Assembly: GCA_037131065.1 (NCBI GenBank)
Contig: JBAXRT010000001.1
Location: 391 to 64,390 of the forward strand
Length of the DNA stretch: 64,000 nucleotides
Source of the DNA: a bacterium
GTDB lineage: Bacteria; Bacteroidota; Bacteroidia; Bacteroidales; FEN-979
Direction: 5' to 3'
Shown here: in pieces, positions 7,471 through 44,682 of the stretch
Position numbering within the stretch: position 1 is the first letter of the stretch
How the letters are laid out: every line of letters starts with the position of its first letter
The notes under the pieces: model-generated
The model's input: the letters and a program-made list of their open reading frames with translations, nothing else
Told to the model about the DNA's origin: nothing
Databases searched by the model: none
Position numbers and translations under genes: made by a program

Positions 7471-7505
7471 CACTCGTCACTCTTAAATCGTCACTCGTCA
7501 CTCAA
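7471..7505. repeat. Heptamer tandem array, 5 units: CACTCGT CACTCTT AAATCGT CACTCGT CACTCAA
   Basis: Read directly. It fills the gap between convergent genes. The stop codon of the minus-strand gene (7498..7500) lies inside the array. Confidence 0.85.
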
Positions 7506-9585
7506 TTATAAGTTTTCCGCTTCTGACGATTTTCGAATTCCTCAACTTAATCAGATAGATCCCTGCCGGCAGATCCTCTGTATTCAGTTGTATTTTCGTG
7601 CCGGTGACTTTCCGTTGCAGGATCTCCTGCCCGAAAAGGTTGACCAGGGAGAGATCCCATACTGTGCCATGTACACGGGTTTCGATGGTTATAGCATCCC
7701 TGGCAGGATTCGGGTAAATTGTAATTCTTGAATTTTCCGTATCGCTGTCCGGCAGGGAAACATGGATATCACCGAGAGCCCGTTTCCAGATCCCGCTTCC
7801 AAAAGTGCCGGCGAAGATCGTGTCATTAAGAAGAGCAAGCGAACCGGTATTAAGATTTTTAAGTCCGTCGTTGCATGGATGCCAGTTTTGCCCGAAATCT
7901 TTTGTACCGAAGATACCATATTGAGTAGAGATATAAAGGGTGTTTCCTGAGGAGACAAACCCCCGGATCCGGCTATCAGAAGTCAAGCCATTTCCGGCAA
8001 AGGTCCAGTACTCACCCTCGTTTAAAGTCACGTACATCCCCACGAACTCAATGAAAACAAACAGGGCACTGTCGCAGAAGGCGTAGGCTTGGGGGGACCT
8101 GTAGTCTGGAAGACCCTGGTTAACGAGTTGCCAGTTCAGGTCATCGCCGAGCTTTAAAGTCTGGGCGAAACCACAGGCCGCAGCATAGGGTACCGATTTA
8201 AAAACAGTCAGATTATACATGGAGTTGCAATATTGGGGGGGGATGGTGATATCGGTCCAGCTTTGCCCCATATCACTGGTAAAAAAACACAACTCATCCT
8301 CGTATGCATATAGCTTGCCATTGTTTCCGTGAATGGAATAAGGATCGTCCCTGGCAAAGGGGACCTCTCCGGCAAGGTGTTGCCAGGTTGACCCTTCGTT
8401 GGTGGAGTAAAGGATAAAGGGAATATCGTAGGGCCAGTAAGTGGTGTCGTTTTCGACCGAGAGGAAGAGGGTGTCGCCCATGGTCATAACAGATCCGAAC
8501 AGTTCATATTCCACGAGAGGTGAGATATTATCCCATATTCCGGCCAGGTTGAGCCGGTATACTTTTTCTTCATTACAGGCGAAAAGAGTCTGATCTGTGG
8601 CTGCCGCCGCCCGGATATAGGAGCAAATAAGCCCGTGGTTGTTTGCCACCCACTGCGTATCCTGGAGGAAAAAAAATCCATCGCGGCTTGTTCCGCACAC
8701 AAGGGTGGAATCATATATTGCAAGTGTTGTGACCGAAAGATCAGTAAGCCCTGAAATGACTGTGGCCCAGGTCATCCCATTATCAGCCGAGCGATAAATG
8801 CCGGAGCCTGCAGTGGCGAGAAAGAGATCAGTCAAACTCCTTAAAAAACTCGTGATCCTGAAAGAACCCGTAAAGATCAGGTTCCAGTGCTCTCCGAAGT
8901 CGGTACTACGGAAGAGATTGGAGTTTATTGCAGTGTAAAGTGTGTCGTCGATGGCCTCTATCATGGTAACGGGTAAGGAGGGGAGGCCATCATTCATTTC
9001 AATCCAGTTGCCGGAATTCCCGTTACGCCTGAAGATCCCATGGTCGGTGCCGCAGAAGATAAACCCGCCTGTAACATTGAGAGCCGTAACATTTGTAATG
9101 TAGTAAAACCCTCCCCCCCAGGGGTCATAAACTGTATCGGTGGGCAACCCGTTGTTTTGCTCTTCCCAGGATGATCCGAAATCATCTGAAACCATAAATC
9201 CCAGGGCCTCGGTGCCGGCCAGCAGGGCTGTATCGGTATGGGCAAGCGCCTGTACCTGCAGATCATTAACCTCGGCAGCCGGAATATCTGGTGAAGATAG
9301 ATCGAACTGTTTTATTCCTCCATAAAATGTTCCTGCAAAAAGCGTGTCCCCTTTTAGGGTATAACAGGTCAGGTGATAAGGTGAATTCACTACCCACCGG
9401 TCTGCCATGTCGTTCCTTGTAAAAGTACCGCAATCCGCGCCGGTCATTATTAAACCGTTTTGCACAATGATGGCGGTGACTTCAGTATTTCCGTAAGGTC
9501 CGTCAGTCTGCACCCACTGGGCCCTGCATTCAATAACCAATGGCAACAAACAGGACAGAAGAAGGAAGATGGTATTTGGTTTCAT
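7498..9585 (-). CDS. Secreted Asp-box (BNR/sortilin-like) beta-propeller protein with a T9SS C-terminal sorting domain
   Basis: Signal peptide present. Seven SxDxGxxW-type boxes (SDDFGSSW, STDFGEHW, SADNGMTW, STNEGSTW, TSDMGQSW, TLNEGEYW, TKDFGQNW). C-terminus ITIYPNPARDAITIE…GIYLIKL…GKLIIE is typical of TIGR04183. Confidence 0.8.
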   Translation of the reverse strand: MKPNTIFLLLSCLLPLVIECRAQWVQTDGPYGNTEVTAIIVQNGLIMTGADCGTFTRNDMADRWVVNSPYHLTCYTLKGDTLFAGTFYGGIKQFDLSSPDIPAAEVNDLQVQALAHTDTALLAGTEALGFMVSDDFGSSWEEQNNGLPTDTVYDPWGGGFYYITNVTALNVTGGFIFCGTDHGIFRRNGNSGNWIEMNDGLPSLPVTMIEAIDDTLYTAINSNLFRSTDFGEHWNLIFTGSFRITSFLRSLTDLFLATAGSGIYRSADNGMTWATVISGLTDLSVTTLAIYDSTLVCGTSRDGFFFLQDTQWVANNHGLICSYIRAAAATDQTLFACNEEKVYRLNLAGIWDNISPLVEYELFGSVMTMGDTLFLSVENDTTYWPYDIPFILYSTNEGSTWQHLAGEVPFARDDPYSIHGNNGKLYAYEDELCFFTSDMGQSWTDITIPPQYCNSMYNLTVFKSVPYAAACGFAQTLKLGDDLNWQLVNQGLPDYRSPQAYAFCDSALFVFIEFVGMYVTLNEGEYWTFAGNGLTSDSRIRGFVSSGNTLYISTQYGIFGTKDFGQNWHPCNDGLKNLNTGSLALLNDTIFAGTFGSGIWKRALGDIHVSLPDSDTENSRITIYPNPARDAITIETRVHGTVWDLSLVNLFGQEILQRKVTGTKIQLNTEDLPAGIYLIKLRNSKIVRSGKLIIE

Positions 9586-9652
9586 AAGGTCATTGGAAAT
9601 TGGTATTAGGGTGAACAGGAAATGTTTTATAATAACAAAAATACTAAGAATT

Positions 9653-9751
9653 AATGCAGGAATGCAGTTTTTAGTCCGCAGTCCGCAGTCTTCAGTCTTC
9701 AGTCTGCAAATTCATCAACATCACTTCATCACTGCGTCACAATTTCATCAC
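9653..9751. repeat. Composite short-tandem-repeat tract: AATGCAGG x2, then AGTCCGC x2, AGTCTTC x2, AGTCTGC x1, then degenerate TTCATCA-containing units
   Basis: Read directly. It lies in the divergent intergenic region between the T9SS propeller gene and guaB. Confidence 0.85.
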
Positions 9752-9880
9752 AGTATTATTACACAAATCACCAATTTTCATTGACTTGTCCGTATTGTAA
9801 CCAAATGACTAATTTTTTCTCCCCAAACCATAATAATTCCGCCACTTTTCAGTTATAATTAAACCGATTCTATTTTTTTA

Positions 9881-9888
9881 TAAATTTG
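9881..9888 (+). promoter_or_regulatory. Bacteroidota-type -7 promoter box TAAATTTG (TAnnTTTG) for guaB
   Basis: Matches the TAnnTTTG consensus, 18 nt upstream of the ATG at 9907. Confidence 0.5.
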
Positions 9889-9906
9889 CACCCTAATTTT
9901 GGGCTT

Positions 9907-11373
9907 ATGTTCCTTAATTCAGATAAATTCATGGGGGAGGGGTTGACTTATGACGATGTGCTGCTTGTACCAGCCTATTCGAAGGTTTTACCCCGCGAGG
10001 TGAATGTGGACACCAGACTTACCAGAAATATTAAACTGAATATTCCCATCGTTTCTGCTGCCATGGATACCGTCACCGAATCGGGTATGGCTATCGCCAT
10101 GGCCCAGGAGGGAGGGATCGGCGTGCTTCACAAGAACATGTCGATTGAGGCACAGGCGATACATGTGCGCAAGGTCAAAAGGGCCGAGAACGGCACCATC
10201 CTTGACCCTGTCACCCTGCATGAGGATGCCTTGGTGAACGAGGCCCTTGCGATGATGAAGGAGCACTCAATCGGCGGCATCCCCGTTATCAACGAAAATC
10301 ATGAACTGGTCGGGATCGTTACCAACCGCGACCTGAGGTTTGAACGCGACCTGATGCGGCCTGTCTCCGAAGTGATGACACGCAAGGTGATCACCATCAG
10401 TGAATTTACGGGTTTTGAAAAGGCAGAAGCCATACTCCAGCAGCACAAGATCGAAAAGCTGCCGGTGGTTGATAAGAAGAACAAGCTCGTTGGGTTGATC
10501 ACTTATAAGGATATTATCAAGATCAAGGCCAGGCCAAACGCCTGTAAGGATAACCTCGGACGACTGCGTGTTGCAGCTGCCGTTGGTGTTGCGGGCGATA
10601 CACTCGACAGGGTGGCTGCCCTTGTAAGGGAGGGGGTTGACGCTATTGTCATCGACACGGCGCATGGTCACTCCTTCTACGTGATCGAAATGGCAAAAAA
10701 AGTTAAAACAGCTTTTCCCAATGTCGACCTGATCGTAGGGAATATCGGTACGGCAGAAGCTGCGAAAGATCTTGCCGCAGTCGGTGTCGACGCCGTCAAG
10801 GTCGGGATCGGGCCCGGTTCCATCTGTACAACGCGCATCATTGCCGGGATCGGTATCCCGCAACTCTCGGCGATCTACAATGTGTCTGAAGCGCTCAGGG
10901 GAACAGGTATTCCTGCCATTGCCGACGGGGGCATCCGTTATACGGGCGATATCGTGAAGGCGCTTGCAGCCGGAGCCCACTCAATCATGGCTGGCTCGCT
11001 CTTTGCCGGTGTGGACGAATCACCCGGTCAGACGATCATATTCGAAGGGAGAAAATTCAAGACCTACCGCGGCATGGGATCGATCGAGGCCATGCAGATG
11101 GGTTCGAAAGACCGTTACTTCCAGGATGTTGAGGAAGATATTAAGAAACTTGTCCCGGAAGGGATTGTCGGAAGGGTACCTTACAAGGGAAGTCTATCCG
11201 AGGTTATTTACCAGATGGTAGGAGGTTTGAGATCAGGGATGGGCTACACAGGTTCCGCCACGATCGATGAACTCCAGAAAGCCAAATTCATGAAGATCAC
11301 TTCGGCAGGCGTTACCGAAAGTCATCCGCACGATGTAACGATCATCAGTGAAGCGCCCAATTACAGCAGGTAA
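9907..11373 (+). CDS. guaB: IMP dehydrogenase
   Basis: [14 protein letters not shown]-terminus, a tandem CBS insert, the catalytic loop [11 protein letters not shown], and [17 protein letters not shown]. Start trimmed from the TTG at 9886 to the ATG at 9907. Confidence 0.95.
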
Positions 11374-11413
11374 TCAAAATTATCAGACGATAAATCAAAA
11401 TAAAACAGAGACT

Positions 11414-13423
11414 ATGAATCGCTTGAAATCACAACTTTTAGTGTTATTAGTTATTGCTTTTGCAGTACCGGTCATTGCCCAGGTAAATAATAATGAAACC
11501 CTTATGACCATTGCGGGGAAAAAGGTGACCGTTGGGGAATTCCTTACCATCTACCAGAAGAATAACGGGAACAAGGATAAGACAGAGGGGAAAAGCAATT
11601 TCATCGACAGGAAATCCCTCGATGAGTACCTTGATCTTTTCATCAATTTTAAACTGAAGGTTAAGGAAGCGGAGGAGCTTGGACTCGACACCCTCACCTC
11701 CTTCCGTAATGAACTGAACGGCTACCGCGACCAGCTTGCCAAACCTTACTTTACAGATGAGGCAACACTCGACAACCTCCTGACCGAGGCCTGGGAGCGT
11801 TCGAAATATGATATCAGGGCCAGCCACATTTTTTTCCGCCTGAAACAAGATGCCCTTCCTGCCGACACCCTTGCCGCTTACAACAAGGCCATCAAGATAA
11901 GTGAACGTGCTACGAACGGAGAGATGTTTGAGAAACTTGCTGTTACCTACTCAGAAGATCCTTCGGCAAAAGACCGGGAAGCCAACCAGCAGCATCCCCT
12001 TATTAAGGGTAACATGGGCGACCTGGGATTCTTTACCGTTTTTGATATGGTTTACGCTTTTGAAAATGCCGCTTACACTACTCCTGTCGGCAAGGTTTCC
12101 GGCATTGTCCGTACCGATTACGGTTACCATATCATCAAGGTAACTGAAAAGAGACCAGCCTTCGGAAAGGTGGTTGTGGCCCATATTTTCCTGGCCCTTC
12201 CCAAGGCAGCAAAGACCGAGGATTCCCTGCGCGTGAAACTGCGGATTGATTCGATCTACCAGAAACTGAAGAATGGAGCAAAGTTCGAAGATCTCGTAAA
12301 ACAATATTCAGAGGATAAGGGTTCTGCCGCAAAGGGGGGAGTGCTTCCCAAATTCGGCGTGAATCGGATGGTTCCTGAGTTCATCGATGCGATCTACACT
12401 CTCTCCAACGTAGGAGATTACTCCAAGCCCACACTTACCCCTTATGGCTGGCACATCATCAAGCTGGTCGAAAGGAAAACCCCGGGAGCCCTGGCTGAGG
12501 AGAAGACCGAACTGAAACAGAAGGTAGTCAAGGATTCGCGCGGGAACCTTCCCAAAGAGGTGGTCATGAAAAAAATCCGTAAGGAATATAGCCTTACCGA
12601 ATATCCTGAGGCCAAAGCAGAGTTCTATAAGATCGTGACCGACACCATCTTCTTTGGGAAATGGGATGCCGCCGTTGCCAGGGATATGGTCAAACCATTG
12701 TTCAAGATCGGGACCCTGACTGTCAGACAGAAGGAGTTTGCCGATTACCTGGCCTCCAAACAACGGAAACGCGACAAGGAACCCATCGAACTGTTTGTAA
12801 ACAAAATGTATAGTGAATTTCTGGATGATAACCTGATCAAGTGGGAAAACAGCCATCTCGAGCAGAAGTATCCTGAATTCAAAGCACTGATGGGTGAGTA
12901 CCGCGACGGTATCCTTCTCTTTGACCTTACCGATAAAAAAGTCTGGTCAAAGGCGGTGAAGGACACAACGGGCCTCAAGGAATTCTATGAAAAGAACAAG
13001 TCAAATTACATGTGGGATACCCGTGTTGACGCTTCTATTTATACCCTGAAGAAAGAGGGAAACCCTGATAAGGTGAAGAACTTCATCACATCGGGACTTT
13101 CCGATACCGACCTGCTGAAGGAGATCAATACTGATTCGCTTAAGCTCCTTTCGATAGAAAACGGGAAATTCTCCAAGCACGACAACAAACTCATCGACGG
13201 TGTAGCATGGCAGCCGGGATTCTCAAAAGATATGACTTCCGATTCCGCCACTGTTTTCATCTATATCCGGAGTGTCCTGAAACCGGAACCCAAAGCGCTC
13301 AGTGAAGCCCGCGGACTTATTACCGCCGACTATCAGAATTTCCTTGAGAAAGAGTGGATCAGGTCGCTGAGGGAAAAATACAAAGTGGTCGTCAATCGGG
13401 AAGTTCTGGCCAAAATCAAGTAG
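11414..13423 (+). CDS. Periplasmic PpiC/parvulin-type peptidyl-prolyl isomerase (PpiD/SurA-like chaperone)
   Basis: Start trimmed to MNRLKSQLLVLLVIAFAVPVIAQ (signal peptide). Parvulin-like segments are present (…GDLGFFTVFDMVYAFENAAY…GYHIIKV and …GWHIIKL). Confidence 0.85.
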   Translation: MNRLKSQLLVLLVIAFAVPVIAQVNNNETLMTIAGKKVTVGEFLTIYQKNNGNKDKTEGKSNFIDRKSLDEYLDLFINFKLKVKEAEELGLDTLTSFRNELNGYRDQLAKPYFTDEATLDNLLTEAWERSKYDIRASHIFFRLKQDALPADTLAAYNKAIKISERATNGEMFEKLAVTYSEDPSAKDREANQQHPLIKGNMGDLGFFTVFDMVYAFENAAYTTPVGKVSGIVRTDYGYHIIKVTEKRPAFGKVVVAHIFLALPKAAKTEDSLRVKLRIDSIYQKLKNGAKFEDLVKQYSEDKGSAAKGGVLPKFGVNRMVPEFIDAIYTLSNVGDYSKPTLTPYGWHIIKLVERKTPGALAEEKTELKQKVVKDSRGNLPKEVVMKKIRKEYSLTEYPEAKAEFYKIVTDTIFFGKWDAAVARDMVKPLFKIGTLTVRQKEFADYLASKQRKRDKEPIELFVNKMYSEFLDDNLIKWENSHLEQKYPEFKALMGEYRDGILLFDLTDKKVWSKAVKDTTGLKEFYEKNKSNYMWDTRVDASIYTLKKEGNPDKVKNFITSGLSDTDLLKEINTDSLKLLSIENGKFSKHDNKLIDGVAWQPGFSKDMTSDSATVFIYIRSVLKPEPKALSEARGLITADYQNFLEKEWIRSLREKYKVVVNREVLAKIK

Positions 13424-13434
13424 AGGATTGTACG

Positions 13435-14271
13435 TTGAAAAAACTCCTGATCTTTTTGCTGGTTATCCTGGCCTCATGCTCATACTTCAAAAAAAAAACG
13501 GAGCGGGTGGTAGCGAGGATTCTGGATGAATACCTGTATGAGTCCGACCTCAGGGGTGTGATACCCCCGGGGACCAGCGCCAAAGACAGCGTTACCCTTA
13601 CCAAAAATTATATTGACAACTGGATCAGGCAGAACCTGGTGATCCGGCAGGCGGAGAACAACCTGACCAGCGAAGAGATGGATTTTTCCAGGCAGCTTGA
13701 GAATTACAAGGAGGCCCTGATCATCTTCGAATATGAGAATGCACTGGTGAAACAGAAACTCGATACGCTCATCACCGAAGAGGAGATTGAGACCTACTAC
13801 GACGCGAACCAGAACAACTTCCTGCTGAAAGACAACATCGTTCAGATCCAGTATGTGAAACTCCCGCTGAAATCGGCTTACACCAGGCAGATCAAGAAAC
13901 TCCTGGTATCTGACAGGCCGGAGGATAAAGTGAAATTGCCCGATCTGTGTGAGAAATATGCAACCGATTACTTCCTCGATGACCAGAACTGGCTCTTTTT
14001 TGGCGATCTCCTCAAACAGATCCCCATCAAAACATATAACCGGGAGGAGTTTCTGAAAAATCGCAGGGAACTGGAATACCAGGATTCCCTTTTCGTTTAC
14101 CTGGTGAGATTCAAGGATTTTAAGATCAAGGAGAGCGTCTCCCCGCTTAGTCTTGAGAAGCCCCGTATCCGCGATATTATCCTTAACAAGCGGAAGATGG
14201 AGCTGATCAGCCGGATGCAGGAGGATATTTATCAGAAAGCGCTGAAGAAAAACGAATTTGAGATTTATTAA
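13435..14271 (+). CDS. Hypothetical lipoprotein in the PPIase cluster
   Basis: In-frame TTG at 13435 gives LKKLLIFLLVILASCSYF (lipobox-like LASC). No catalytic motif recognised. The start is uncertain. Confidence 0.5.
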   Translation: MKKLLIFLLVILASCSYFKKKTERVVARILDEYLYESDLRGVIPPGTSAKDSVTLTKNYIDNWIRQNLVIRQAENNLTSEEMDFSRQLENYKEALIIFEYENALVKQKLDTLITEEEIETYYDANQNNFLLKDNIVQIQYVKLPLKSAYTRQIKKLLVSDRPEDKVKLPDLCEKYATDYFLDDQNWLFFGDLLKQIPIKTYNREEFLKNRRELEYQDSLFVYLVRFKDFKIKESVSPLSLEKPRIRDIILNKRKMELISRMQEDIYQKALKKNEFEIY

Positions 14272-14298
14272 CCGGGAGTGATCCCGAATGCTGAATTT

Positions 14299-15660
14299 AT
14301 GAAGTTCCTGAGAAACATTGTTTACCTGATCATTTTGGTCCTGGTTGTTCCTGCGAGCGCCTGGGCCCAGCCAGCAAGGGATTCGGTCATTGACGGGCTG
14401 GTGGCTGTGGTCGGGGGTAACATCATCCTGAAATCAGATATCGAAGGCCAGTATTTCCAGATCCGAAGCCAGGGGAATATACAGGGAACATCCTCAGGTC
14501 TGAAGTGCCAGCTACTTGAAGATCTTCTAGTCCAGAAACTGATCCTTCACCAGGCCCAGGTCGACAGCGTAAAAGTTACCGACGAAATGGTGGAGGGAGA
14601 GATGGACCGGAGGATGCGCTACTTTATCTCCCAGGCCGGTTCACCTGAAAGGCTGGAGGAGCATTTCCAGAAAACGCTCGTGGAGATCAAGGCGGAATTA
14701 CGTGATGTGGTGCGGGAACAACTGCTGGTGAAAAGCGAGAATGAGAGGATCATGAAGGACATTACAATAACTCCTTCCGAAGTGAAGGCCTTTTTCAAGA
14801 GGCTTCCCAAGGACAGCATTCCCGAGATGAGTTCTGAGATGGAGGTCGGAATGATCGTGAAGATCCCATCGATCGGTGATGAGGAAAAGCAGGTTGTCAA
14901 AACAAAACTGAAAAGTTTTAAGGACAGGATCACAAAGGGCGATGATTTCAGCACCCTCGCAGTGATGTATTCCGAAGATCCCGGTTCCTCCAAACAGGGC
15001 GGTGAACTCGGAATGTTCAAACGGGGAGATATGCGGCCTGAATTTGAGGCGGCTGCCTTTAAACTGAAACCGGGAGAAGTGTCGGATATCGTTGAAACGG
15101 AGGATGGGTTCCACCTGATACAGATGATCGAACGCCGGGGTGAATATATCAATGTCCGGCATATACTGCTTCAGCCGCAGGTTTCTTTATATAACCTGAA
15201 CAAGGCAAAGCAGAGTCTGGATTCAGTAGCGACACTTATCGATACAAAGAAACTTACTTTTGAGCAGGCCGTACTGAAACATTCCGACGATCCGGGGAAG
15301 ATCAACGGCGGACTCATGGTCAACCAGATGATAGGAGGTACCCGGTTCGAGGCAAGTCAGCTCGACCCCAAGGTCGCCTTCATCGTCGACAAACTGAAGG
15401 TAGGCGAGATCTCCGCCCCGGTCCTGATGAAGACCGACCGCGGAAAGCAGGAATACAGGCTCTATTACCTGAAACTACGCACCAAGCCCCACAAGGCTAA
15501 CCTGAGTGATGATTATGCGAAGATCCAGCAGATGTCCCTGGAGAAAAAACAGCTGGAGGCCATGAACGACTGGATCACGCGGAAAGTGGAGAGTTCCTAT
15601 GTCAACATCATCGGAGATTACAGGAATTGTACTTTTAAAAGAAAATGGGTTAGAAATTAA
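14299..15660 (+). CDS. SurA-like periplasmic chaperone/PPIase
   Basis: Start trimmed to MKFLRNIVYLIILVLVVPASAWAQ. A SurA-N-like region is followed by a parvulin domain (…GELGMFKRGDMRPEFEAAAF…GFHLIQM) and a second, degenerate one. Confidence 0.85.
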   Translation: MKFLRNIVYLIILVLVVPASAWAQPARDSVIDGLVAVVGGNIILKSDIEGQYFQIRSQGNIQGTSSGLKCQLLEDLLVQKLILHQAQVDSVKVTDEMVEGEMDRRMRYFISQAGSPERLEEHFQKTLVEIKAELRDVVREQLLVKSENERIMKDITITPSEVKAFFKRLPKDSIPEMSSEMEVGMIVKIPSIGDEEKQVVKTKLKSFKDRITKGDDFSTLAVMYSEDPGSSKQGGELGMFKRGDMRPEFEAAAFKLKPGEVSDIVETEDGFHLIQMIERRGEYINVRHILLQPQVSLYNLNKAKQSLDSVATLIDTKKLTFEQAVLKHSDDPGKINGGLMVNQMIGGTRFEASQLDPKVAFIVDKLKVGEISAPVLMKTDRGKQEYRLYYLKLRTKPHKANLSDDYAKIQQMSLEKKQLEAMNDWITRKVESSYVNIIGDYRNCTFKRKWVRN

Positions 15661-15673
15661 ACCGCGAGGATAT

Positions 15674-16639
15674 ATGCACTATTCCAGTGATGTTGAAGCT
15701 GTTGATGCCCTTGTCAGAAAATATTCTCTTCTGAAGTCCGAGATCGCAAAGGTGATTGTTGGTCAGGATGAAGTCATCAAAAACCTGCTGATCTCCATAT
15801 TCTGCAAGGGTCATTGTTTACTTGTTGGCGTCCCCGGACTGGCCAAGACGTTGATGGTTAATACCATCTCAAAAGCATTGGGACTCAGTTACAGCAGGAT
15901 CCAGTTCACACCCGACCTGATGCCTTCCGACATCATTGGAACAGAGATTCTTGATGAGGCGCGCAAATTCAGGTTTATTAAGGGACCGGTTTTTGCCAAC
16001 ATCATTCTTGCCGATGAGATTAACCGGACACCACCAAAGACCCAGTCAGCCCTTCTGGAGGCCATGCAGGAGAAGGCGGTAACCGTTGCTGGGACCACCT
16101 ACCACCTCGAGGAACCGTTCTTTGTGCTGGCCACCCAGAACCCGATCGAACACGAAGGAACTTATCCACTGCCGGAGGCACAACTCGACCGCTTTATGTT
16201 CAACCTCTGGCTCGATTATCCTTCGGGCGATGAGGAGATTCAGATCGTAAAGGCGACCACGACCGAAAAATCCATCACGCCGGAGATAGTAGTATCGGCA
16301 GAAGAGATCCTCTTCTTTCAGAACCTCATCAGAAAGATCCCTGTCCCAGATAATGTTTACCATTATGCAGTCAGCCTGGTCGGACACACCAGGCCGCAGG
16401 CGGATGGACCCGATAGCTGGGCTAAAAGGTACCTCACATGGGGTGCCGGACCACGGGCCTCCCAGTACCTTATCCTTGGCGCCAAATGCAACGCCGTCAT
16501 TAATGGAAAATATTCCCCCGATAAGGAAGATGTGAGGGCAGTTGCAAAACCCGTGCTCCGCCACAGAATTGTGAGGAACTATAAGGCCGAAGCTGAGGGG
16601 ATCCAGCCTGATCATATCATTGAACACTTTTTATCCTGA
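15674..16639 (+). CDS. MoxR-family AAA+ ATPase
   Basis: Walker A GVPGLAKT and Walker B ILADEINR, plus a MoxR-type C-terminal region. Start trimmed to MHYSSDVEAV. Confidence 0.9.
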   Translation: MHYSSDVEAVDALVRKYSLLKSEIAKVIVGQDEVIKNLLISIFCKGHCLLVGVPGLAKTLMVNTISKALGLSYSRIQFTPDLMPSDIIGTEILDEARKFRFIKGPVFANIILADEINRTPPKTQSALLEAMQEKAVTVAGTTYHLEEPFFVLATQNPIEHEGTYPLPEAQLDRFMFNLWLDYPSGDEEIQIVKATTTEKSITPEIVVSAEEILFFQNLIRKIPVPDNVYHYAVSLVGHTRPQADGPDSWAKRYLTWGAGPRASQYLILGAKCNAVINGKYSPDKEDVRAVAKPVLRHRIVRNYKAEAEGIQPDHIIEHFLS

Positions 16640-16646
16640 AGTTTAA

Positions 16647-16654
16647 TAGTTTTG
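16647..16654 (+). promoter_or_regulatory. Candidate -7 box TAGTTTTG upstream of pstS
   Basis: TAnnTTTG match, 77 nt upstream of the ATG at 16732. Confidence 0.35.
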
Positions 16655-16731
16655 TGCCACTTTTTTTGTTCGGGACAACCTGCGGAATTGTTATTGAATT
16701 ATTTTCGTACATCTCTTAAATCAGACGTGTG

Positions 16732-17718
16732 ATGAATTCAAGAACAGAGAGGATCTTATCCTTTTTCGCACTGCTGTTATTTGGCTTGTCTTTTTTTCCG
16801 GGCTGTGGACATCGCAACGATACCCCGGGATCCGCTAAGGATACCCTCCGTGGCAAGATCACCATTTCAGGTGCTTTTGCTTTATATCCCATTACTGTGA
16901 AATGGGCGGAGGAGTACCAGAACCTTCACCCGAGGGTAACCATCAATGTCTCAGCCGGCGGCGCAGGAAAAGGGATGGCAGATGCCCTTACCAGGATGGT
17001 CGACCTGGGCATGTTCTCCAAAGCCGTCAGTCCCGAGGAACAGGCCAAGGGCGCCTGGTGGGTTGGGGTATGCAAGGATGCTGTTTTGCCCACTGTCAAT
17101 GCTGACAACCCGGTATTACCAATCCTGAAAACAAAGGGGATGACCCGCCAGCAGTTCTACGATATTTTCATCACGGGTTCTATAAAGACCTGGGGAGAGG
17201 CTGCAGGAACCAGCGACAGGACAGAGGTCCAGGCCTTTACCCGATCTGATGCCTGCGGCGCTGCCGATATGTGGGCAAAATACCTCAAAAACAATAAACA
17301 GGAGGATCTCCTTGGTCTCGGACTCAACGGTGACCCTGGAGTTGCCGATGCCGTCAGAAAAAACAGGGAGGGGATTGGTTTCAATAACCTGAATTTTGTT
17401 TATGATATGCAGAACCGTAAGAAATACCAGGGCCTTGAAGTGATACCGATCGACCTGAATGAGAATGGGAAGATCGATCCTGAGGAGAACTTTTACGGCA
17501 CCCTCGATGAGGTGATGAAAGCCATCAACGGCGGGAAATATCCCTCCCCGCCAGCCAGGGAACTTTTCATGGTATCGAAGGGAAAACCCTCTAGTAAACT
17601 TGTGCTTAATTTCCTCAACTGGATCCTTACCGATGGTCAGAAATATATTATGGAAGCTGGCTACGTTCAGATTCCTGATACAAGGATCCAGGCCGAACTG
17701 AAAAAAGTTGCCTTTTAA
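16732..17718 (+). CDS. pstS: Phosphate ABC transporter substrate-binding lipoprotein
   Basis: Signal plus lipobox (FFPGCGH) and PBP-type phosphate-binding features (SGAFALYPI…, SAGGAGKG). Followed by pstCAB. Confidence 0.85.
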   Translation: MNSRTERILSFFALLLFGLSFFPGCGHRNDTPGSAKDTLRGKITISGAFALYPITVKWAEEYQNLHPRVTINVSAGGAGKGMADALTRMVDLGMFSKAVSPEEQAKGAWWVGVCKDAVLPTVNADNPVLPILKTKGMTRQQFYDIFITGSIKTWGEAAGTSDRTEVQAFTRSDACGAADMWAKYLKNNKQEDLLGLGLNGDPGVADAVRKNREGIGFNNLNFVYDMQNRKKYQGLEVIPIDLNENGKIDPEENFYGTLDEVMKAINGGKYPSPPARELFMVSKGKPSSKLVLNFLNWILTDGQKYIMEAGYVQIPDTRIQAELKKVAF

Positions 17719-17741
17719 TCCAGTTTTATTACCTTTGGATT

Positions 17742-18632
17742 ATGTACCTCCTGAACCGGCAGCAGCGGCATGGTGTCAATAATACATGGATGATCGTCAG
17801 TCTCCTGATCATCGCTTTCCTGCCCTTTCTTTTATTTACCGGATTGTACATGAAGTCTTTCATGCTGCTGCGTGATTACCCTATCACTGACCTCCTCTTT
17901 TCGAAGGAATGGCGCCCTTCAAGCGGTAAGTTCGGGTTCTATCCCTTCATCATCGGATCGATATGGGTAACGCTGCTGGCTATGATTATCTCCGGCCCCA
18001 TCTGTCTTCTTACCGCCATCTATGTGACACAATACACGAAAAAGTATTTCCTGCGCATCATGCACCCGGCCATCGATATACTTGCAGGGATCCCATCGGT
18101 TGTTTATGGAGTATGGGGACTGCTCGTTATCGTACCCTTCATCTCCCGTTATCTTGGTCCCTGGTTCGGGGTTGAAACCATGGGATACAGCATACTGGCT
18201 GGAGCCTTCGTCCTGGCGATCATGATCATACCGTTCATTTTGAATATCCTGATCGAAGTATTCAGGTCAGTCCCGGCCGAGCTCAAGGAGGCCTCCCTCT
18301 CGCTTGGAGCAACGGAATGGCAAACGGTGAAACATGTACTGCTAAAGAAATCCCTTCCTGGCATTATTGCCGCCTTCGGGTTCGGGCTTGCCCGGGCTTT
18401 CGGGGAGACGATGGCTGTTCTGATGGTGGTGGGGAATGTGGTGAAATTGCCGAAAAGCGTTTTTGATCCGGGTTACACCTTACCTGCCCTGATCGCTAAC
18501 AACTACGGGGAGATGCTCTCGATCCCGAGATATGACTCAGCCCTTATGTTCGCTGCACTTATCCTTTTGGCCGTCTCTCTCTTTTTTAACCTCGTCATGC
18601 ACTTTTTTATTGTAAAGTATAACAAATACTGA
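17742..18632 (+). CDS. pstC: Phosphate ABC transporter permease
   Basis: Six-TM permease with the EAA-type loop ELKEASLSLGATEWQT. Confidence 0.9.
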   Translation: MYLLNRQQRHGVNNTWMIVSLLIIAFLPFLLFTGLYMKSFMLLRDYPITDLLFSKEWRPSSGKFGFYPFIIGSIWVTLLAMIISGPICLLTAIYVTQYTKKYFLRIMHPAIDILAGIPSVVYGVWGLLVIVPFISRYLGPWFGVETMGYSILAGAFVLAIMIIPFILNILIEVFRSVPAELKEASLSLGATEWQTVKHVLLKKSLPGIIAAFGFGLARAFGETMAVLMVVGNVVKLPKSVFDPGYTLPALIANNYGEMLSIPRYDSALMFAALILLAVSLFFNLVMHFFIVKYNKY

Positions 18633-18635
18633 CCT

Positions 18636-19493
18636 TTGCGACGGATCCATAAAATAGAAGAGCGTTTTTTCAAGATCCTGATGATCCTGTCCACTTACTT
18701 CATCCTTGCAATTCTTGCCATCATCATCTATTCCGTTTTTGAAAAAGGTCTGAAAGCCATTTCATGGGAGGTGCTCACAACCATACCGAAAGGAGGATAT
18801 TACTACGGGAGGGGAGGCGGGATACTGAACGCCATTCTCGGGTCGCTCACCCTTGCCTTTGCCTCGACCATCCTTGCTTTCCTGATTGCCCTGCCGGTTG
18901 CCCTCTATATCAATGTGTTCCTGGTTAGGAAAAAGAAACTGGTGAATCTTCTACGTTTTATCCTCGACCTGATCTGGGGGATCCCATCCATTGTCTACGG
19001 AGCCTTCGGATTTTCCATGATGATTTTCCTTGGATTGCAGACCTCCCTTCTCGCAGGGATCCTGACAGTGACCCTCTTCATTCTGCCCATCATGATCCGT
19101 TCCATGGATGAGATATTGAGAATGGTTCCCATCGGGCTGGCAGAGGCTACCTATTCTCTGGGATCCAACAAGTCGGAAACAGCCTTCAAGGTTTTTACAC
19201 GTCAATCGGTTTCGGGGATCATCACGGCCATTCTCCTCTCCTTCGGAAGGGCGATCGGCGATGCAGCCTCCGTACTCTTTACTGCGGGGTACACCGATAA
19301 CCTTCCGAACTCACTCATGGAACCAGTGGCAACCCTGCCTTTGTCGATCTTCTTCCAGCTCGCTTCCCCTGTGCCGGAAGTTCAGAACCGGGCCTATGCC
19401 TCCGCACTAGTCCTTACGCTGATCATCCTGGTAGTCAGCCTCTTTTCTCGGGGACTTGGGAAAAGATATCATAAAACGAAGATTAATTTTTAA
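18636..19493 (+). CDS. pstA: Phosphate ABC transporter permease
   Basis: Permease with the EAA-type loop GLAEATYSLGSNKSET. The track start is a TTG; an ATG at 18681 is an alternative. Confidence 0.9.
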   Translation: MRRIHKIEERFFKILMILSTYFILAILAIIIYSVFEKGLKAISWEVLTTIPKGGYYYGRGGGILNAILGSLTLAFASTILAFLIALPVALYINVFLVRKKKLVNLLRFILDLIWGIPSIVYGAFGFSMMIFLGLQTSLLAGILTVTLFILPIMIRSMDEILRMVPIGLAEATYSLGSNKSETAFKVFTRQSVSGIITAILLSFGRAIGDAASVLFTAGYTDNLPNSLMEPVATLPLSIFFQLASPVPEVQNRAYASALVLTLIILVVSLFSRGLGKRYHKTKINF

Positions 19494-23109: not shown

Positions 23110-23159
23110 AATTGTCTTGATTTAGTGAATACTCATTATTCTGAGAGGGAAGTAAATTG

Positions 23160-23167: not shown

Positions 23168-23196
23168 ATCAAATTTGCATATGATCAAAATCCCGA

Positions 23197-28704: not shown

Positions 28705-28707
28705 CCT

Positions 28708-29364: not shown

Positions 29365-29370
29365 CCTGTT

Positions 29371-30448: not shown

Positions 30449-31079
30449 CGATCAGGAATACATAAAATTCCTTTGGTCCATGGGCGCCCATAACGATCGT
30501 CTTTTCAATATCGGCGGTTCTGCTCGGGCCGGTGATCAAAGATATCATAGAGGGGAATTGATCCTGGTACTTTTTTCTGACATTCTGAAGCGCCTGCTTC
30601 AGGTCAGGGACAAGCTGAGAGATAAAACCAACAACCAGGTGGATTTCGGGATAAACCACGATCTTGCGGCCGGGGTTCATCTTTGTGGAGACCATCACGG
30701 ATCCGGTCCTTGCGATAAGATACTCGCAGCCGGTAATCCCGATCCGGGCATCCAGGATATTGGCATGATCCGATTCAAATGGAATGCCTGCCAAACGGAG
30801 CAGTTGTTGGATTGCAGGGTCTCCGCAGAAAAGCAACGGCCAGTCCTTTTCGAGAATAAATGATTTTAGTATGCCAAGGAATTCATCATTGCTTTCACAG
30901 TAGACAAATTTTCCTGAGATTTTGATCAGCTCCTGTGCAAAGGCGACATCCAGTGGCTCGGTCATCCCGGTATAGATCGGCGATTCCTGGTCGAGAACAG
31001 GATATGGAGGACCCGTCTTTTCAATCAGGGCATCCCTTACCTTTTTCAGGACCTTTTCTCGCGAAGTGCTCTCTTCCAT
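30426..31079 (-). CDS. LUD-domain protein (LutC/YkgG-like)
   Basis: Size and motifs of the LutC-like family (…ITGCEYLIARTGSVMVS…IVVYPEIHLVV…GPSRTADIE). Confidence 0.7.
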   Translation of the reverse strand: MEESTSREKVLKKVRDALIEKTGPPYPVLDQESPIYTGMTEPLDVAFAQELIKISGKFVYCESNDEFLGILKSFILEKDWPLLFCGDPAIQQLLRLAGIPFESDHANILDARIGITGCEYLIARTGSVMVSTKMNPGRKIVVYPEIHLVVGFISQLVPDLKQALQNVRKKYQDQFPSMISLITGPSRTADIEKTIVMGAHGPKEFYVFLIDDATFDK

Positions 31080-31089
31080 GAGGGGAGGA

Positions 31090-33210: not shown

Positions 33211-33242
33211 TCTGTCTGGTTACAAATTGTTAGCGGGTCTGA

Positions 33243-33620
33243 TTAATCCTGAAGGTTCATCTTCGTGATCTCTGCATCTGCCCATAATTGCTCAAGATTA
33301 TAGAATTTCCTGCGCTCTTCCTGGAAGATGTGTACCACGACGTCGCTGTAGTCGATCAAAATCCATTCCGCATTTTCAAAACCCTCCTTGTGCCAGGGAT
33401 TCAACCCTGTATTTTTCTTCACTTCACCAATCACATGGTCGGCCAGGGCCTCAACCTGTGTCCTGGAAGTGCCATGACAGATCACGAAGGCATCAGAGAT
33501 CGTCCCGGGGAGTTTGGTAAAATCAAGAATGACCCCTTGCTTTCCTTTTTTATCAGCCATGGCATGGCTGACAGTTTCGATCAGGATTTCGCGCGGCCCT
33601 TTTTTTGGTTTCCTTGGCAT
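33243..33620 (-). CDS. rsfS: Ribosome silencing factor
   Basis: Iojap/RsfS-like: …DFVICHGTSRTQVEALADHV…WILIDYSDVVVHIF…. Confidence 0.85.
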   Translation of the reverse strand: MPRKPKKGPREILIETVSHAMADKKGKQGVILDFTKLPGTISDAFVICHGTSRTQVEALADHVIGEVKKNTGLNPWHKEGFENAEWILIDYSDVVVHIFQEERRKFYNLEQLWADAEITKMNLQD

Positions 33621-33667
33621 CTGGTAATTCAGGATTAACTGACAAAATTAGTAAAATAACCGACTGC

Positions 33668-34378
33668 TCAGAAATTAGGTTTGAGGGCATAATCCTTGTA
33701 GAATTCCGAGATGTGCTTTACCGCCTCTTCAGCAGTATCCACCGTTGTAAAAATCTCAAGATCTTCCCTGATGATGTTCTTCTCTTCCAGAAGCGTCGTA
33801 TTGATCCATTCAATGAGTCCTTTCCAGTAATCTTTTACAACCAGGACAATGGGAAACCTTACAAGCTTATGGGTCTGGATCAGGGTGATGGCCTCGGTGA
33901 GTTCATCCAGTGTTCCGAACCCTCCCGGTAAGGCGATGAAACCCATGGAATAGCGCATGAACATCGTCTTCCTGACATAGAAATAATCGAAGTTGATCAG
34001 TTTGTTCCTGTCGATGAAGGGATTTGGATTTTGTTCAAAGGGTAGGTTGATGTTCAGACCCACTGACTTGCCTCCTGCAAAATGGGCTCCCTTGTTGGCT
34101 GCCTCCATGATGCCGGGTCCGCCGCCCGTGATGATCCCGAACCCGGCCTTCGTGAGCAGGTACGCAACCTCTTCCGTAAGTTTGTAATATTTGTGACCCT
34201 CTCTCGTCCTGGCCGATCCGAAGATGGAGACACAGGGTCCGATCTTGCTCAGCTTCTCGAAACCTTCAACCATCTCCGACATCACCTTGAAGATTTCCCA
34301 GGTATCATAACTGATGGTTTCCGACCATGTTTTTGGCTGGAATGACTCTTTCAGCTTTTCTATTTCTTTAGTATCCAT
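33668..34378 (-). CDS. LOG-family (TIGR00730) nucleotide phosphoribohydrolase-like protein
   Basis: GGGPGIMEA and PGGFGTLDEL motifs. Confidence 0.85.
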   Translation of the reverse strand: MDTKEIEKLKESFQPKTWSETISYDTWEIFKVMSEMVEGFEKLSKIGPCVSIFGSARTREGHKYYKLTEEVAYLLTKAGFGIITGGGPGIMEAANKGAHFAGGKSVGLNINLPFEQNPNPFIDRNKLINFDYFYVRKTMFMRYSMGFIALPGGFGTLDELTEAITLIQTHKLVRFPIVLVVKDYWKGLIEWINTTLLEEKNIIREDLEIFTTVDTAEEAVKHISEFYKDYALKPNF

Positions 34379-38310: not shown

Positions 38311-38408
38311 AGTCCGCAGTCTGCAGTCTGCAGTCTGCAGCCAGCAATACCAAATCTAAAATCTAAAATCTTAAATCAATTCGTCACTCGTCAATAGTCA
38401 TTCGTCAC
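38311..38408. repeat. Heptamer tandem array, 14 phase-coherent units in three modules: AGTCCGC AGTCTGC x3 AGCCAGC | AATACCA AATCTAA x2 AATCTTA AATCAAT | TCGTCAC TCGTCAA TAGTCAT TCGTCAC
   Basis: Read directly and anchored to flanking ORF ends. It fills most of the gap between the rfbC stop (38412) and the transglycosylase start (38275). Confidence 0.95.
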
Positions 38409-38954: not shown

Positions 38955-38962
38955 TGTTCGAT

Positions 38963-39026
38963 AATTTGAAAATTTGAAAATTTGATGATGTGAAGATGAA
39001 TTTTCAAATCTTCAAATCTTCAAATT
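38963..39026. repeat. Octamer tandem array arranged as an inverted repeat: AATTTGAA x2 AATTTGAT GATGTGAA GATGAATT TTCAAATC x2 TTCAAATT
   Basis: Read directly. The left and right halves are near reverse complements and could form a ~20-bp imperfect hairpin. It lies between the lpd stop and the rfbC start. Confidence 0.85.
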
Positions 39027-39037
39027 CATTGAATAGT

Positions 39038-41802: not shown

Positions 41803-41804
41803 AT

Positions 41805-43172: not shown

Positions 43173-43227
43173 TCCTCATATAGTCATTATATGATCAATA
43201 ACTTAACCTCTTTTCCCTTTGACCTTT

Positions 43228-43261
43228 TTCCAATTTCCAATTACTTAATGACCTAATGACA
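43228..43261. repeat. Short tandem duplications TTCCAAT x2 and TAATGACC/TAATGACA directly upstream of thrH
   Basis: Read directly. It is similar in style to the other arrays but uses different units. Confidence 0.5.
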
Positions 43262-43266
43262 AACGT

Positions 43267-43869
43267 ATGTACATAATCTGCTCCGACCTTGAAGGTGTTT
43301 TCGTACCGGAAGTGTGGATCAATGTGGCCGAAAAGACCGGTATCCCTGAACTGCGCAGGACTACCCGCGATGAACCCGATTATAACCTGCTGATGCGCCA
43401 GCGCATTAAAATCCTGGATCAGCACGGACTGAAGTTGCATGATATTCAACACGTCATTGCTCAGATAAAACCCCTGCCGGGCGCTTTGGAGTTTATTGGT
43501 TGGGTCAAGGAACTTACTCAACTGATCGTTGTCTCCGATACCTTCATCCAGTTCGCCGATCCCCTCATGAAACAGCTTGGCAGGCCTACATTGTTCTGTC
43601 ACTCCCTGATTATGGATGAGACCAACCGGATCATCGATTATAAACTCCGGCAGCCGGACCCGAAACGAAAAACGGTGGAGGCATTACAGGGATTGAAATA
43701 TGAGGTCATTGCCATGGGCGATTCATACAACGACATCAGCATGCTTAAACAGGCTGAAACAGGGATCCTTTTCCGCCCCCCTGAAAATGTTATTAAAGAC
43801 TATCCGCAGTTTCCTGTCTGCACCAATTATGAAGAACTCAGAGCATTACTGACACCAATTATCGGCTGA
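43267..43869 (+). CDS. thrH: ThrH-type HAD phosphatase (phosphoserine phosphatase / homoserine phosphotransferase)
   Basis: MYIICSDLEGVFVPEVWINVAEKTGIPELRRTTRDEPDYNLLMRQRIKILDQHGLKL closely parallels the Pseudomonas ThrH N-terminus as I recall it. GDSYND HAD motif present. Confidence 0.8.
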   Translation: MYIICSDLEGVFVPEVWINVAEKTGIPELRRTTRDEPDYNLLMRQRIKILDQHGLKLHDIQHVIAQIKPLPGALEFIGWVKELTQLIVVSDTFIQFADPLMKQLGRPTLFCHSLIMDETNRIIDYKLRQPDPKRKTVEALQGLKYEVIAMGDSYNDISMLKQAETGILFRPPENVIKDYPQFPVCTNYEELRALLTPIIG

Positions 43870-44633
43870 TGGAGATCCGTTTTGATAATAAGGTCGTTCT
43901 CGTGACCGGAGCCTCCAGGGGGATCGGTAAAGCCACCGCCATGTCGTTCGCAGTCTCAGGAGCTGCGGTCATGGTCCATTATAAATCGAACACAGAAGCC
44001 GCCGACCTTCTTTTAAAGTCACTCCGGGGTAAGGATCACCGGAAAATAGCCGCAGACCTTGCCGTACCAGTAGATGTCGAGCGACTGGTTGCTGAAACCA
44101 TTCGTGTATTCGGAAGGATCGATATCCTGGTCAACAATGCCGGGATCTTTCGTGAGATTGAAATGGCCGGGCTTGATTTTTCTTCCTTTCAGAAGTACTG
44201 GACCGAAACGTTGGATGTCAATCTCCGTGGGCCGGCATACCTCTCCTTCCTGGCCGCTAAAGAGATGATCAGGACCGGCGGTGGAAAGATCATCAACATT
44301 TCATCACGTGGCGCCTTCCGCGGCGAACCCGATGCCTGGGCCTATGGAGCAAGTAAGGCCGGATTAAACGCCCTCGGGCAGAGTATGGCAAAAGCGCTGG
44401 CCCCACAAAAGATCTATGTCTACACCCTTGCACCCGGTTATGTAAACACCGACATGGCTGCCTTTAACCTGACAGGCGAAAAGGCGCAGCAGACCGCAGC
44501 GCAGAGCCCGATGAACCGTGTGGCTCAGCCTGAAGAGATCGCCCGTGCAGTCCTGATGCTCGCAGCCGACGGTACTGAATACATGACCGGCTGCATCCTC
44601 GATATGAATGGTGCCTCTTACCTCCGAACATAG
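43869..44633 (+). CDS. Short-chain dehydrogenase/reductase (FabG-like)
   Basis: TGASRGIGKA, NNAG and YGASKAGL (YxxxK). Its start overlaps the thrH stop (TGATG). Confidence 0.85.
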   Translation: MEIRFDNKVVLVTGASRGIGKATAMSFAVSGAAVMVHYKSNTEAADLLLKSLRGKDHRKIAADLAVPVDVERLVAETIRVFGRIDILVNNAGIFREIEMAGLDFSSFQKYWTETLDVNLRGPAYLSFLAAKEMIRTGGGKIINISSRGAFRGEPDAWAYGASKAGLNALGQSMAKALAPQKIYVYTLAPGYVNTDMAAFNLTGEKAQQTAAQSPMNRVAQPEEIARAVLMLAADGTEYMTGCILDMNGASYLRT

Positions 44634-44682
44634 TTTCTGTCACTCGTCACACGTCATTCGTACTTTGTTGAGTGTCATGTTT
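44634..44682. repeat. Degenerate heptamer array, 7 units: TTTCTGT CACTCGT CACACGT CATTCGT ACTTTGT TGAGTGT CATGTTT
   Basis: Read directly. It begins immediately after the SDR stop codon. Confidence 0.7.

Follow-up and report, generated by a model that had tools for sequence, protein, structure and literature searches.

Short units of 7, 8 or 9 bp are repeated head-to-tail at nine loci in a 64 kb stretch of the genome of an uncultured bacterium of the Bacteroidota (assembly GCA_037131065.1, contig JBAXRT010000001.1); we refer to this whole stretch as the window. The arrays add to a class of bacterial heptanucleotide simple-sequence repeats that is known but little understood, and do not constitute a new kind of element. 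In the account that we favor, and consider probable, they are long simple-sequence repeats (LSSRs) of the heptanucleotide class that evolve in place in the manner of microsatellites and are mostly tolerated by-products.

Tandem Repeats Finder detects arrays at all nine loci (9/9) at which the original prediction, a first reading of the sequence alone, had placed them, and inspection of the sequence agrees at each. When the window was scanned for maximal exact runs of period p (periods 4-12, at least p + 5 matched bases), seven period-7 runs and two period-8 runs were found and none of periods 4-6 or 9-12, whereas in the shuffle control that the original prediction had proposed, here run as 20 dinucleotide-preserving shuffles of the window, the mean number of runs was 0.0. 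As had been claimed, the arrays are not ordinary low complexity but a non-random, essentially intergenic family with units in common. They have the features by which LSSRs are recognized, namely head-to-tail units of 5-11 nt, of which 7 nt is the commonest, and lengths beyond chance. The loci are listed below in window coordinates, followed by two weak arrays that were absent from the earlier listing.

7471-7505, + strand: period-7 array of CACTCGT and AAATCGT, 5 units, in a convergent spacer; its first base lies one after the TAG of the + strand cytochrome gene (5980-7470), and its last unit includes the TGA stop (7498-7500, - strand) of the gene for a BNR protein of the type IX secretion system (T9SS).
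9653-9751, + strand: composite array of AATGCAGG x2, AGTCYGC/AGTCTTC x5, followed by period-8 units resembling TTCATCAC; it lies upstream of both likely promoters in the divergent spacer that separates a T9SS protein gene from the IMPDH gene.
23197-23220, + strand: degenerate array of AAATCGT units upstream of the ECF sigma gene, in a divergent spacer.
23984-24069, + strand: AAATCTA, AAATCTG, AAATCGT x2 and AAATCCA, then seven [C/T]TCGTCA units, in gene 23766-24362.
28633-28704, no strand assigned: period-9 inverted array pair (CGTGATGGT / CGAGATGTC ... CGAACATCT) forming a long hairpin, which takes up the spacer between the convergent DUF2461 and psd genes.
38311-38408, + strand: period-7 composite array of 14 units (AGTCYGC x4, 2 degenerate units, AATCTAA x3, AATCAAT, TCGTCAC-type x4) in the spacer that separates two - strand genes, rfbC and the SLT transglycosylase gene; its 38408 end lies 3 nt from the rfbC stop (3 nt past the stop in the sense of the gene).
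38963-39026, no strand assigned: period-8 inverted pair (AATTTGAA)3 ... (TTCAAATC)3 between lpd and rfbC, with a stem of ~21 bp.
43228-43261, + strand: TTCCAAT x2 and CTTAATGAC/CTAATGAC x2 in the thrC-HAD spacer, ending 5 nt from the ATG of the HAD hydrolase gene.
44634-44682, + strand: degenerate TCGTCAC-type array (CACTCGT CACACGT CATTCGT ...), unstructured (z = +0.6), directly after the TAG of a short-chain dehydrogenase gene, with the next gene ~50 nt downstream.
58798-58825, + strand: weak period-8 array, ATTTCGCT x3.5, immediately upstream of the gene starting at 58829.
27926-27946, + strand: weak period-7 array, TTTTTGT x2.8, upstream of the DUF2461 gene.

Placement of the arrays is strongly confined. 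Eight of the nine loci are mostly non-coding in a window of which 5.5% is non-coding (binomial P = 7e-10; the fraction was taken from a curated gene map in which the open reading frame (ORF) at 23766-24362 counts as a gene), in agreement with the earlier assignment of eight loci to gaps between genes, and every exact run falls outside ordinary coding sequence. The ninth locus (23984-24069) is no borderline case, as it lies in frame within a conserved protein-coding gene. Several arrays touch stop codons, as had been noted (7471, 44634, 38408 and the 28633-28704 region), and arrays fill spacers right up to the stop and start codons. They are read on either strand relative to the flanking genes, which are mostly housekeeping genes (IMPDH, lpd, rfbC, thrC and psd). 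When spacers at least 20 bp long are counted, 2 of the 4 convergent, 2 of the 6 divergent and 4 of the 19 tandem ones hold an array, and spacer type thus sets no placement rule. Three arrays (9653, 23984 and 38311) are composite, with several unit types side by side. The claim that the 7-bp phase is kept exactly where the unit type changes stands for adjacent units that are alike, since AGTCTGC and AATCTAA share A-TCT in register and five AAATCnn units follow one another, but is empty for unrelated neighbors such as AAATCCA next to TCCGTCA, because any such junction can be written in phase.

Evidence for the microsatellite account comes from the same spacers in other genomes. At the strain level, the window was compared with a second assembly, GCA_964645145.1, and the contigs of a related species recovered from three samples (L002-L004) were compared with each other. 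The second assembly covers window positions 1198-19432, 22942-34362 and 31805-53172, from which it differs by 2, 1 and 5 substitutions, respectively (8 in total), with zero gaps. All nine arrays are identical in it and are thus not an assembly artefact, a possibility that the original prediction had raised. The three contigs of the related species have 99.9% mutual identity, with 15-23 single-nucleotide polymorphisms (SNPs) per 20 kb, and their arrays are identical; the sole indel over 20 kb lies in an intergenic A8/A9 homopolymer (L002:8714 vs L004), and their heptamer and nonamer arrays are unchanged. The arrays are accordingly stable in length at 0.02-0.1% sequence divergence, and therefore give no sign of contingency switching. 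A metagenome scan with Lpd found relatives at 83% identity or lower and none of the same species.

At larger distances the arrays differ. The gene order lpd-rfbC-SLT-uvrA is conserved in relatives but the spacers are not, as the following three cases illustrate.

Window: lpd-rfbC spacer of 83 bp with a (AATTTGAA)n hairpin; rfbC-SLT spacer of 136 bp with the 14-unit composite array.
L002-L004 (87% Lpd identity): lpd-rfbC spacer of 65 bp with (GATGAACGT)n; rfbC-SLT spacer of 24 bp.
L005 (87% Lpd identity): lpd-rfbC spacer of 19 bp with no array; rfbC-SLT spacer of 2 bp.

A closer relative (L001, 94% Lpd identity) carries (AAACCTG)8 downstream of lpd, and its contig ends within the array. An array is present in the lpd 3' spacer at 15 of the 82 lpd loci with downstream sequence (L001-L004, L125, L131, L136, L146, L163, L169, L170, L184, L187, L199 and window 38955-39037), the unit differs in each distinct genome, and several start on the stop codon; in more distant relatives, this spacer mostly holds a canonical terminator (a G+C hairpin followed by a T-run). 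In the thrC-HAD spacer, the TTCCAAT-type array of the window corresponds to (GGGGATT)5 and (ATCTGTC)3.7 in L005 (L005:783-847). Gene order is conserved at all four comparable sites (lpd-rfbC, rfbC-SLT, thrC-HAD and sigma/anti-sigma), at which relatives carry other arrays or none; at the last of these, the conserved order is sigma, membrane protein, DUF4252. The comparison of orthologous regions proposed in the original prediction thus reveals differences between relatives in presence, unit and copy number, the pattern of orthologous spacers that is expected of LSSRs, and the combination of fixed site, whole-unit change, homogenization and slow turnover is that of microsatellite dynamics.

The array within a gene shows the same behavior under the constraint of a reading frame. 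Gene 23766-24362 encodes a membrane protein for which there is one 100% identical protein from a metagenome-assembled genome (MAG) at NCBI and 51 further homologs of 140-266 residues (184-202 in the closest 35). No Pfam match was obtained for this 184-202 residue protein, whose gene stands between those for an ECF sigma factor and a DUF4252 protein (window 23270-24933). The array at 23984-24069 encodes a linker (..IRHSSLVIRHSSLVTRH..) that lies just before the transmembrane helix, and the region (23975-24075) is unstructured as nucleic acid (z = +1.7). In a relative, L206, the array is orthologous: its five AAATC-type units are kept save for one substitution, whereas there are one or two TCGTCA units in L206 and seven in the window, a net difference of 42 nt, or 14 codons, that keeps the frame. 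In L207, the site holds (ACGCGTC)n, in which a unit variant with one substitution has been homogenized along the array. Upstream of the ECF sigma gene, the AAATCGT array is likewise orthologous in L206, with three clean copies there and degenerate copies in the window. Separately, we noticed that the juxtamembrane linker (P0121-P0155) is a hot spot at which heptamers give rise to 7-residue peptide repeats, which read SSLVIRH/SSLVTRH here and HASRVTR in P0123.

Heptamer arrays are also general among the genomes examined. Period 7 is the commonest array period in 85 lpd-anchored loci of relatives, and likewise in all fetched loci, and the window carries 15.6 period-7 arrays per 100 kb as compared to 3.9 in 80 Bacteroidota loci that were chosen regardless of repeats. 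In relatives, 77-81% of period-7/8 arrays are intergenic and arrays of periods 6, 9 and 12 are mostly coding, a split expected from the frame rule for products of slippage. The unit TCGTCAY is widespread: in a collection with one genome per species (GTDB), (TCGTCAY)3 occurs at at least 119 loci as compared to ~2 expected for random sequence, and the phyla among the matches listed include Verrucomicrobiota (most often), Planctomycetota, Chloroflexota, Acidobacteriota, Cyanobacteria and Bacteroidota, with others. Many contigs with TCGTCAY arrays carry this unit at several distant sites. The idea that TCGTCAY is a special cross-phylum element was dropped, as permuted control heptamers are comparably frequent on viral contigs (51, 18 and 7 loci, against 63 for TCGTCAY) and near-TCGTCAY units are at random level in the 80 unbiased Bacteroidota loci; its spread therefore reflects the general abundance of heptamer arrays. 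A rule for the orientation of TCGTCAY arrays in untranslated regions was also set aside as weak: over 108 arrays among the matches listed, 32 at starts were sense and 23 antisense, and 29 at stops were sense and 40 antisense, counts that are partly artefactual as the gene ends were set by ORFs.

The original prediction had listed nine loci with head-to-tail arrays; seven of them are direct arrays, and 28633-28704 and 38963-39026 are inverted array pairs. These two loci fold with much better scores than shuffled sequence: for 38955-39037, z = -5.2 on the - strand (sense) and -4.5 on the + strand, and for 28626-28707, z = -4.5 (+ strand) and -2.9 (- strand), whereas the seven direct-array loci lack structure (z from -2.3 to +1.7), the 14-unit array at 38311-38408 being unstructured on both strands. 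The two palindromic loci (2/9) have no common sequence, and their hairpins lack a T-run. Repeat-built hairpins also occur in the lpd 3' spacer of relatives (L131, z = -6.6; L169, z = -7.9; L199, z = -6.5), and the lpd 3' spacers of L002 and L170 hold direct, unstructured arrays. The two inverted pairs of the window may act like RNA 3' hairpins of the repetitive extragenic palindromic (REP) type at the 3' ends of genes.

Under the LSSR account, arrays would grow by slipped-strand mispairing or unequal exchange during replication. The comparisons show that at fixed spacers they gain or lose whole units, that point variants spread along an array, and that the unit at a given spacer is replaced over time. 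Arrays are located almost only where a step of 7 or 8 nt cannot shift a reading frame, and the array within the membrane protein gene sits in a tolerant juxtamembrane linker, where the length difference from the ortholog is a multiple of 3 nt. Most arrays are presumably tolerated by-products, bounded by selection on the neighboring genes, rather than sequence-specific signals, a reading suggested by their presence in all spacer types and in both orientations with respect to the neighboring genes, and by the lack of secondary structure in most of them. The least secure step of this scheme concerns the recurrence of the same few units on one strand, for which the best explanation is that arrays exchange or seed units among themselves, in combination with a bias that tracks local strand composition.

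Several observations weigh against this account. Unit recurrence was counted within the 64 kb of the window, the one stretch of this genome that was analyzed. TCGTCACTCGT is found at 7488, 24027-24055 and 38381, AAATCTAAAAT at 23984 and 38352, and AGTCCGCAGTC at 9673 and 38311, always on the + strand, and none of the three occurs on the - strand of the window. As one given 11-mer is expected by chance ~0.015 times in 64 kb, the original observation that distant loci have a common unit vocabulary is borne out, with 11-mers recurring at 2-3 loci on the + strand only. Loci that are up to ~31 kb apart thus carry the same units on the same strand, for which independent slippage at each site is insufficient. 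The order of units is also partly repeated: at 9673 and 38311, AGTCYGC precedes units of the TCGTCAC/TCATCAC type, and at 23984 and 38311, AAATCTA precedes TCGTCAC. A partial lead on the strand bias is that, among the matches listed at loci of at least 6 kb, the sign of the G/C skew of period-7/8 arrays tends to match that of the locus (odds ratio 1.9, P = 1e-4), an association in which effects of replication and transcription are not separated; the + strand of the window is C-rich and its arrays are C-rich on that strand, which is consistent with this match. In addition, the recurrence of arrays at the lpd 3' spacer in many lineages could mean that something there is under selection, and the reported effect of heptamer repeats on reporter genes in Nostoc, described below, means that neutrality of the arrays cannot be assumed. 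Separately, units of the window's set were seen in distant genomes, with AAATCAA, AAATCGT and AGTCTTC mixed in one of them (L184:1073-1116), (AAAATCT)n in L130:1490-1517 and L198:19234-19252, and AAATCGT adjoining TCGTCAC in a high-GC MAG (L032, GC 68%); for AT-rich units, such occurrences may be due to chance.

The polarity of array-armed hairpins also weighs against the LSSR account, because plain slippage does not predict it. Among the matches listed, which span many phyla and both strands, the G-rich arm is 5' in 63 hairpins and the C-rich arm in 11, whereas ordinary hairpins in the same DNA show no polarity (151 vs 152); with one count per distinct unit the ratio is 50 vs 7, and for inverted pairs of TCGTCAY, the order (RTGACGA)n...(TCGTCAY)n was seen 36 times and the reverse order once. 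The loci counted are L006-L124 and L209-L321 (e.g. L006:5775-5836, L033, L096 and L199:4485-4572), as well as 38963-39026 and 28633-28704 in the window. Stop-codon content was considered as the cause of the polarity and rejected as a poor predictor (24 vs 12, against 50 vs 7 for G/C skew). We did not find this polarity described in the literature, which was not searched for it specifically. The recurrence of units on one strand and the polarity of the inverted pairs would also fit a reading in which the arrays are not passive microsatellites but an oriented, dispersed family kept by an undescribed directional process, either a protein that binds specific units or copying between spacers, although we judge this to be unlikely.

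Other roles can be weighed against the same data. The arrays could provide a phased platform for a sequence-specific protein, the shared units then being the signal of a regulon; on DNA this would resemble the action of ToxT/H-NS on the TTTTGAT heptads of ctxAB or of SARP regulators on heptameric direct repeats, and on RNA one cold-shock or S1-type OB-fold protein might bind per 7 nt. Such a platform fits the recurrence of identical units on one strand at distant loci, the presence of AAATCGT both upstream of the ECF sigma gene and within the next gene in the window and in L206, and the pyrimidine-rich character, in the sense of the downstream + gene, of 7 of the 9 non-hairpin arrays (the two weak ones included), as well as the proposal of Csp/S1 binding for the TAACTGA repeat and the effects of heptamers on recO and recF reporters. 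It is nevertheless doubtful, as units are wholly different at the orthologous spacers of close relatives, arrays also lie in convergent spacers and antisense at 38311, the TCGTCAY arrays obey no clear orientation rule at starts or stops, and permuted heptamers form arrays on viral contigs similarly often. Stem-loops of the kind found in REP sequences and bacterial interspersed mosaic elements (BIMEs), or terminators, which would stabilize the upstream mRNA or end transcription, agree with the folds of 38955-39037 and 28626-28707, with the repeat hairpins in the lpd 3' spacers of L131, L169 and L199 and with the canonical terminators of distant relatives at that site. As an explanation of the whole set, such stem-loops are nonetheless quite improbable: seven of the nine loci are direct and unstructured, neither hairpin is followed by a T-run, and divergent gene pairs flank two of the arrays. 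Scans of 7-47 kb for sigma-70 promoters and terminators gave counts at the level of shuffled sequence and zero overlap with arrays, Rfam covariance models gave 0 matches at gathering score over the whole window, and no conserved REP-like sequence or REP-associated tyrosine transposase (RAYT) gene was seen in the window. Of the earlier suggestion of a genome-specific REP-like element, therefore, at most the two hairpin loci survive, and its terminator variant is disfavored by the same scans, direct arrays and divergent spacers.

Three further readings run into the comparative data. By analogy with hmw1A of Haemophilus, which has 7-bp repeats upstream, or with neuO, the arrays might be slipped-strand contingency loci whose copy number switches or tunes neighboring genes, a role that had been put forward in the original prediction and would suit a repeat type that is in principle prone to slippage, that differs in copy number between species and that in one case flanks a gene for a T9SS-secreted surface protein. 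We regard it as very unlikely, since no array changed in length over the 8 SNPs that separate the two assemblies or among L002-L004, the flanking genes are mostly housekeeping genes, the in-gene array varies in frame only, and arrays occupy neither promoter spacers nor the 5' ends of ORFs; the sole candidate, the T9SS gene (7498-9585), has its arrays at its stop and >65 nt upstream of its start. Scars or ends of mobile elements or inserted cassettes (MITE-like or attC-like), of which cassette junctions had been proposed, could account for the partly ordered unit types common to the composite arrays at three loci, but this origin is highly improbable: as gene order is kept at the four comparable sites whether or not an array is present, the arrays are not cassette scars, inspection of their surroundings revealed neither common flanking sequence nor terminal inverted repeats nor target duplications, and orthologous arrays differ by whole units at the same position. 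An assembly or sequencing artefact is suggested by the L001 contig that ends inside an array and by the known tendency of repeats to break short-read assemblies; its probability is negligible in view of nine arrays that are identical in a second assembly differing by SNPs and of orthologous arrays in independent metagenomes.

The window is ordinary chromosomal DNA, and its gene content includes genes for alternative complex III, two T9SS-sorted proteins, IMPDH, UvrA, FtsH, Lpd, RfbC, ThrC and GcvP. The closest homologs of its Lpd come from Bacteroidetes/Bacteroidales MAGs, and exact-protein look-ups returned records for IMPDH, ThrC and P0121 and none for the window's RfbC or Lpd. Heptanucleotide arrays are the commonest long simple-sequence repeats in many bacteria, and the window offers a clean case from the Bacteroidota in which whole-unit change, homogenization of unit variants, preservation of frame within a gene and stability at the strain level can be followed together; this comparative detail points to slow dynamics of the microsatellite type and speaks against phase variation. 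In practical terms, such arrays break short-read contigs, lengthen spacers and mimic regulatory or mobile elements in annotation. Should a real mechanism underlie the shared units or the hairpin polarity, it could be tested in uncultured lineages by metagenomics alone.

Comparison with known systems places the arrays among repeats that have been described in other bacteria. The 7-bp repeats of hmw1A, the TTTTGAT heptads of ctxAB and the heptanucleotides of neuO are likewise tandem 7-bp units near genes, but each of these is a single locus that has a defined regulator or a phase-variable output, with a copy number that varies between strains, whereas the window has many loci, housekeeping neighbors and no variation between near-identical genomes. 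The likeness to the REP/BIME sequences of Enterobacteria is confined to the two hairpin loci, which have strong stem-loops, short spacers, a position at the 3' ends of genes and no T-run; they differ in that their arms are built from tandem units, there is no conserved palindrome family and seven loci are non-palindromic. No RAYT transposase gene was seen in the window, and no genome-wide search for one was made. The short tandemly repeated repetitive (STRR) sequences of cyanobacteria are said to have been described by Mazel and colleagues in 1990 with the units CCCCAGT, TTGGTCA and CAACAGT. As in the STRR sequences of Calothrix and Nostoc, several heptamers occur per genome at many intergenic sites, often with different units adjacent, but the phylum is another and the units are others: the window carries TCGTCAC, AAATCGT, AAATCTA, AGTCYGC, AATTTGAA and others instead of CCCCAGT, TTGGTCA or CAACAGT. 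TCGTCAT differs by one substitution from a rotated TTGGTCA, and both occur intermingled in a cyanobacterial locus (L110). The existence of three heptanucleotide repeats in Calothrix is cited in PMC4692102.

Closer parallels are provided by heptamers that extend to the same phylum. TAACTGA and accompanying heptamers are found in Beggiatoaceae, Cyanobacteria and five Bacteroidetes (MacGregor 2015, PMC4679880), and Bacteroidetes with heptamer arrays include Gramella, Aequorivita, Flexibacter and Elizabethkingia (PMC4679880; PMC4692102). The original statement that no described element has this unit set thus holds for the exact units, for which a literature search on TCGTCAT/TCGTCAC arrays gave nothing relevant and one by STRR unit sequences gave unrelated papers only, but not for the kind, since heptamer arrays have been described, including in Bacteroidetes (PMC4679880; PMC4692102). 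Like the window's arrays, TAACTGA repeats are intergenic, are mixed with other heptamers (Gramella, Aequorivita, Elizabethkingia), are missing from the shorter, repeat-free spacers of close relatives and occur occasionally in frame within ORFs, on the strand without a stop codon (PMC4679880). They differ in that TAACTGA itself is absent from the window and that the Beggiatoa copies lie mostly just upstream of starts in one orientation (PMC4679880), a rule that the window lacks. Binding of Csp or S1 has been proposed for TAACTGA repeats (PMC4679880), and a preprint reports that heptamer repeats alter the expression of recO and recF reporters in Nostoc (bioRxiv 10.1101/2022.06.06.494920). Repeats of GGGAATC in Xanthomonas and of GGGGAYT in Nostoc (Rehm et al. 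2015, PMC4692102) are G-rich and quadruplex-forming, whereas the window's units are neither; the Xanthomonas arrays nonetheless resemble them in being intergenic, in varying in length and sequence between sister species with identical flanking genes, and in including some inverted pairs that form stem-loops (PMC4692102). The (GGGGATT)5 array in the thrC-HAD spacer of L005 is the G-quadruplex-forming heptamer described for Nostoc.

The closest match is with LSSRs as a class. The literature of 2015 states that no detailed study of heptanucleotide arrays exists, and the 7-nt step has been ascribed in the literature to polymerase-template geometry. In the 2007 survey of LSSRs with units of 5-11 nt by Mrazek et al., as it is summarized in later papers (PMC4679880; PMC4692102), heptanucleotides are the most abundant class in many genomes and slippage is proposed as their origin; Bacteroidota are not among the top genomes of that survey in these summaries. 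The arrays of the window share with LSSRs, so summarized, the head-to-tail arrangement, the predominance of 7-nt units, lengths beyond chance, the intergenic location of non-triplet units and a sporadic distribution over lineages (PMC4679880; PMC4692102), and they differ from them not in kind but in unit sequences that are specific to this genome.

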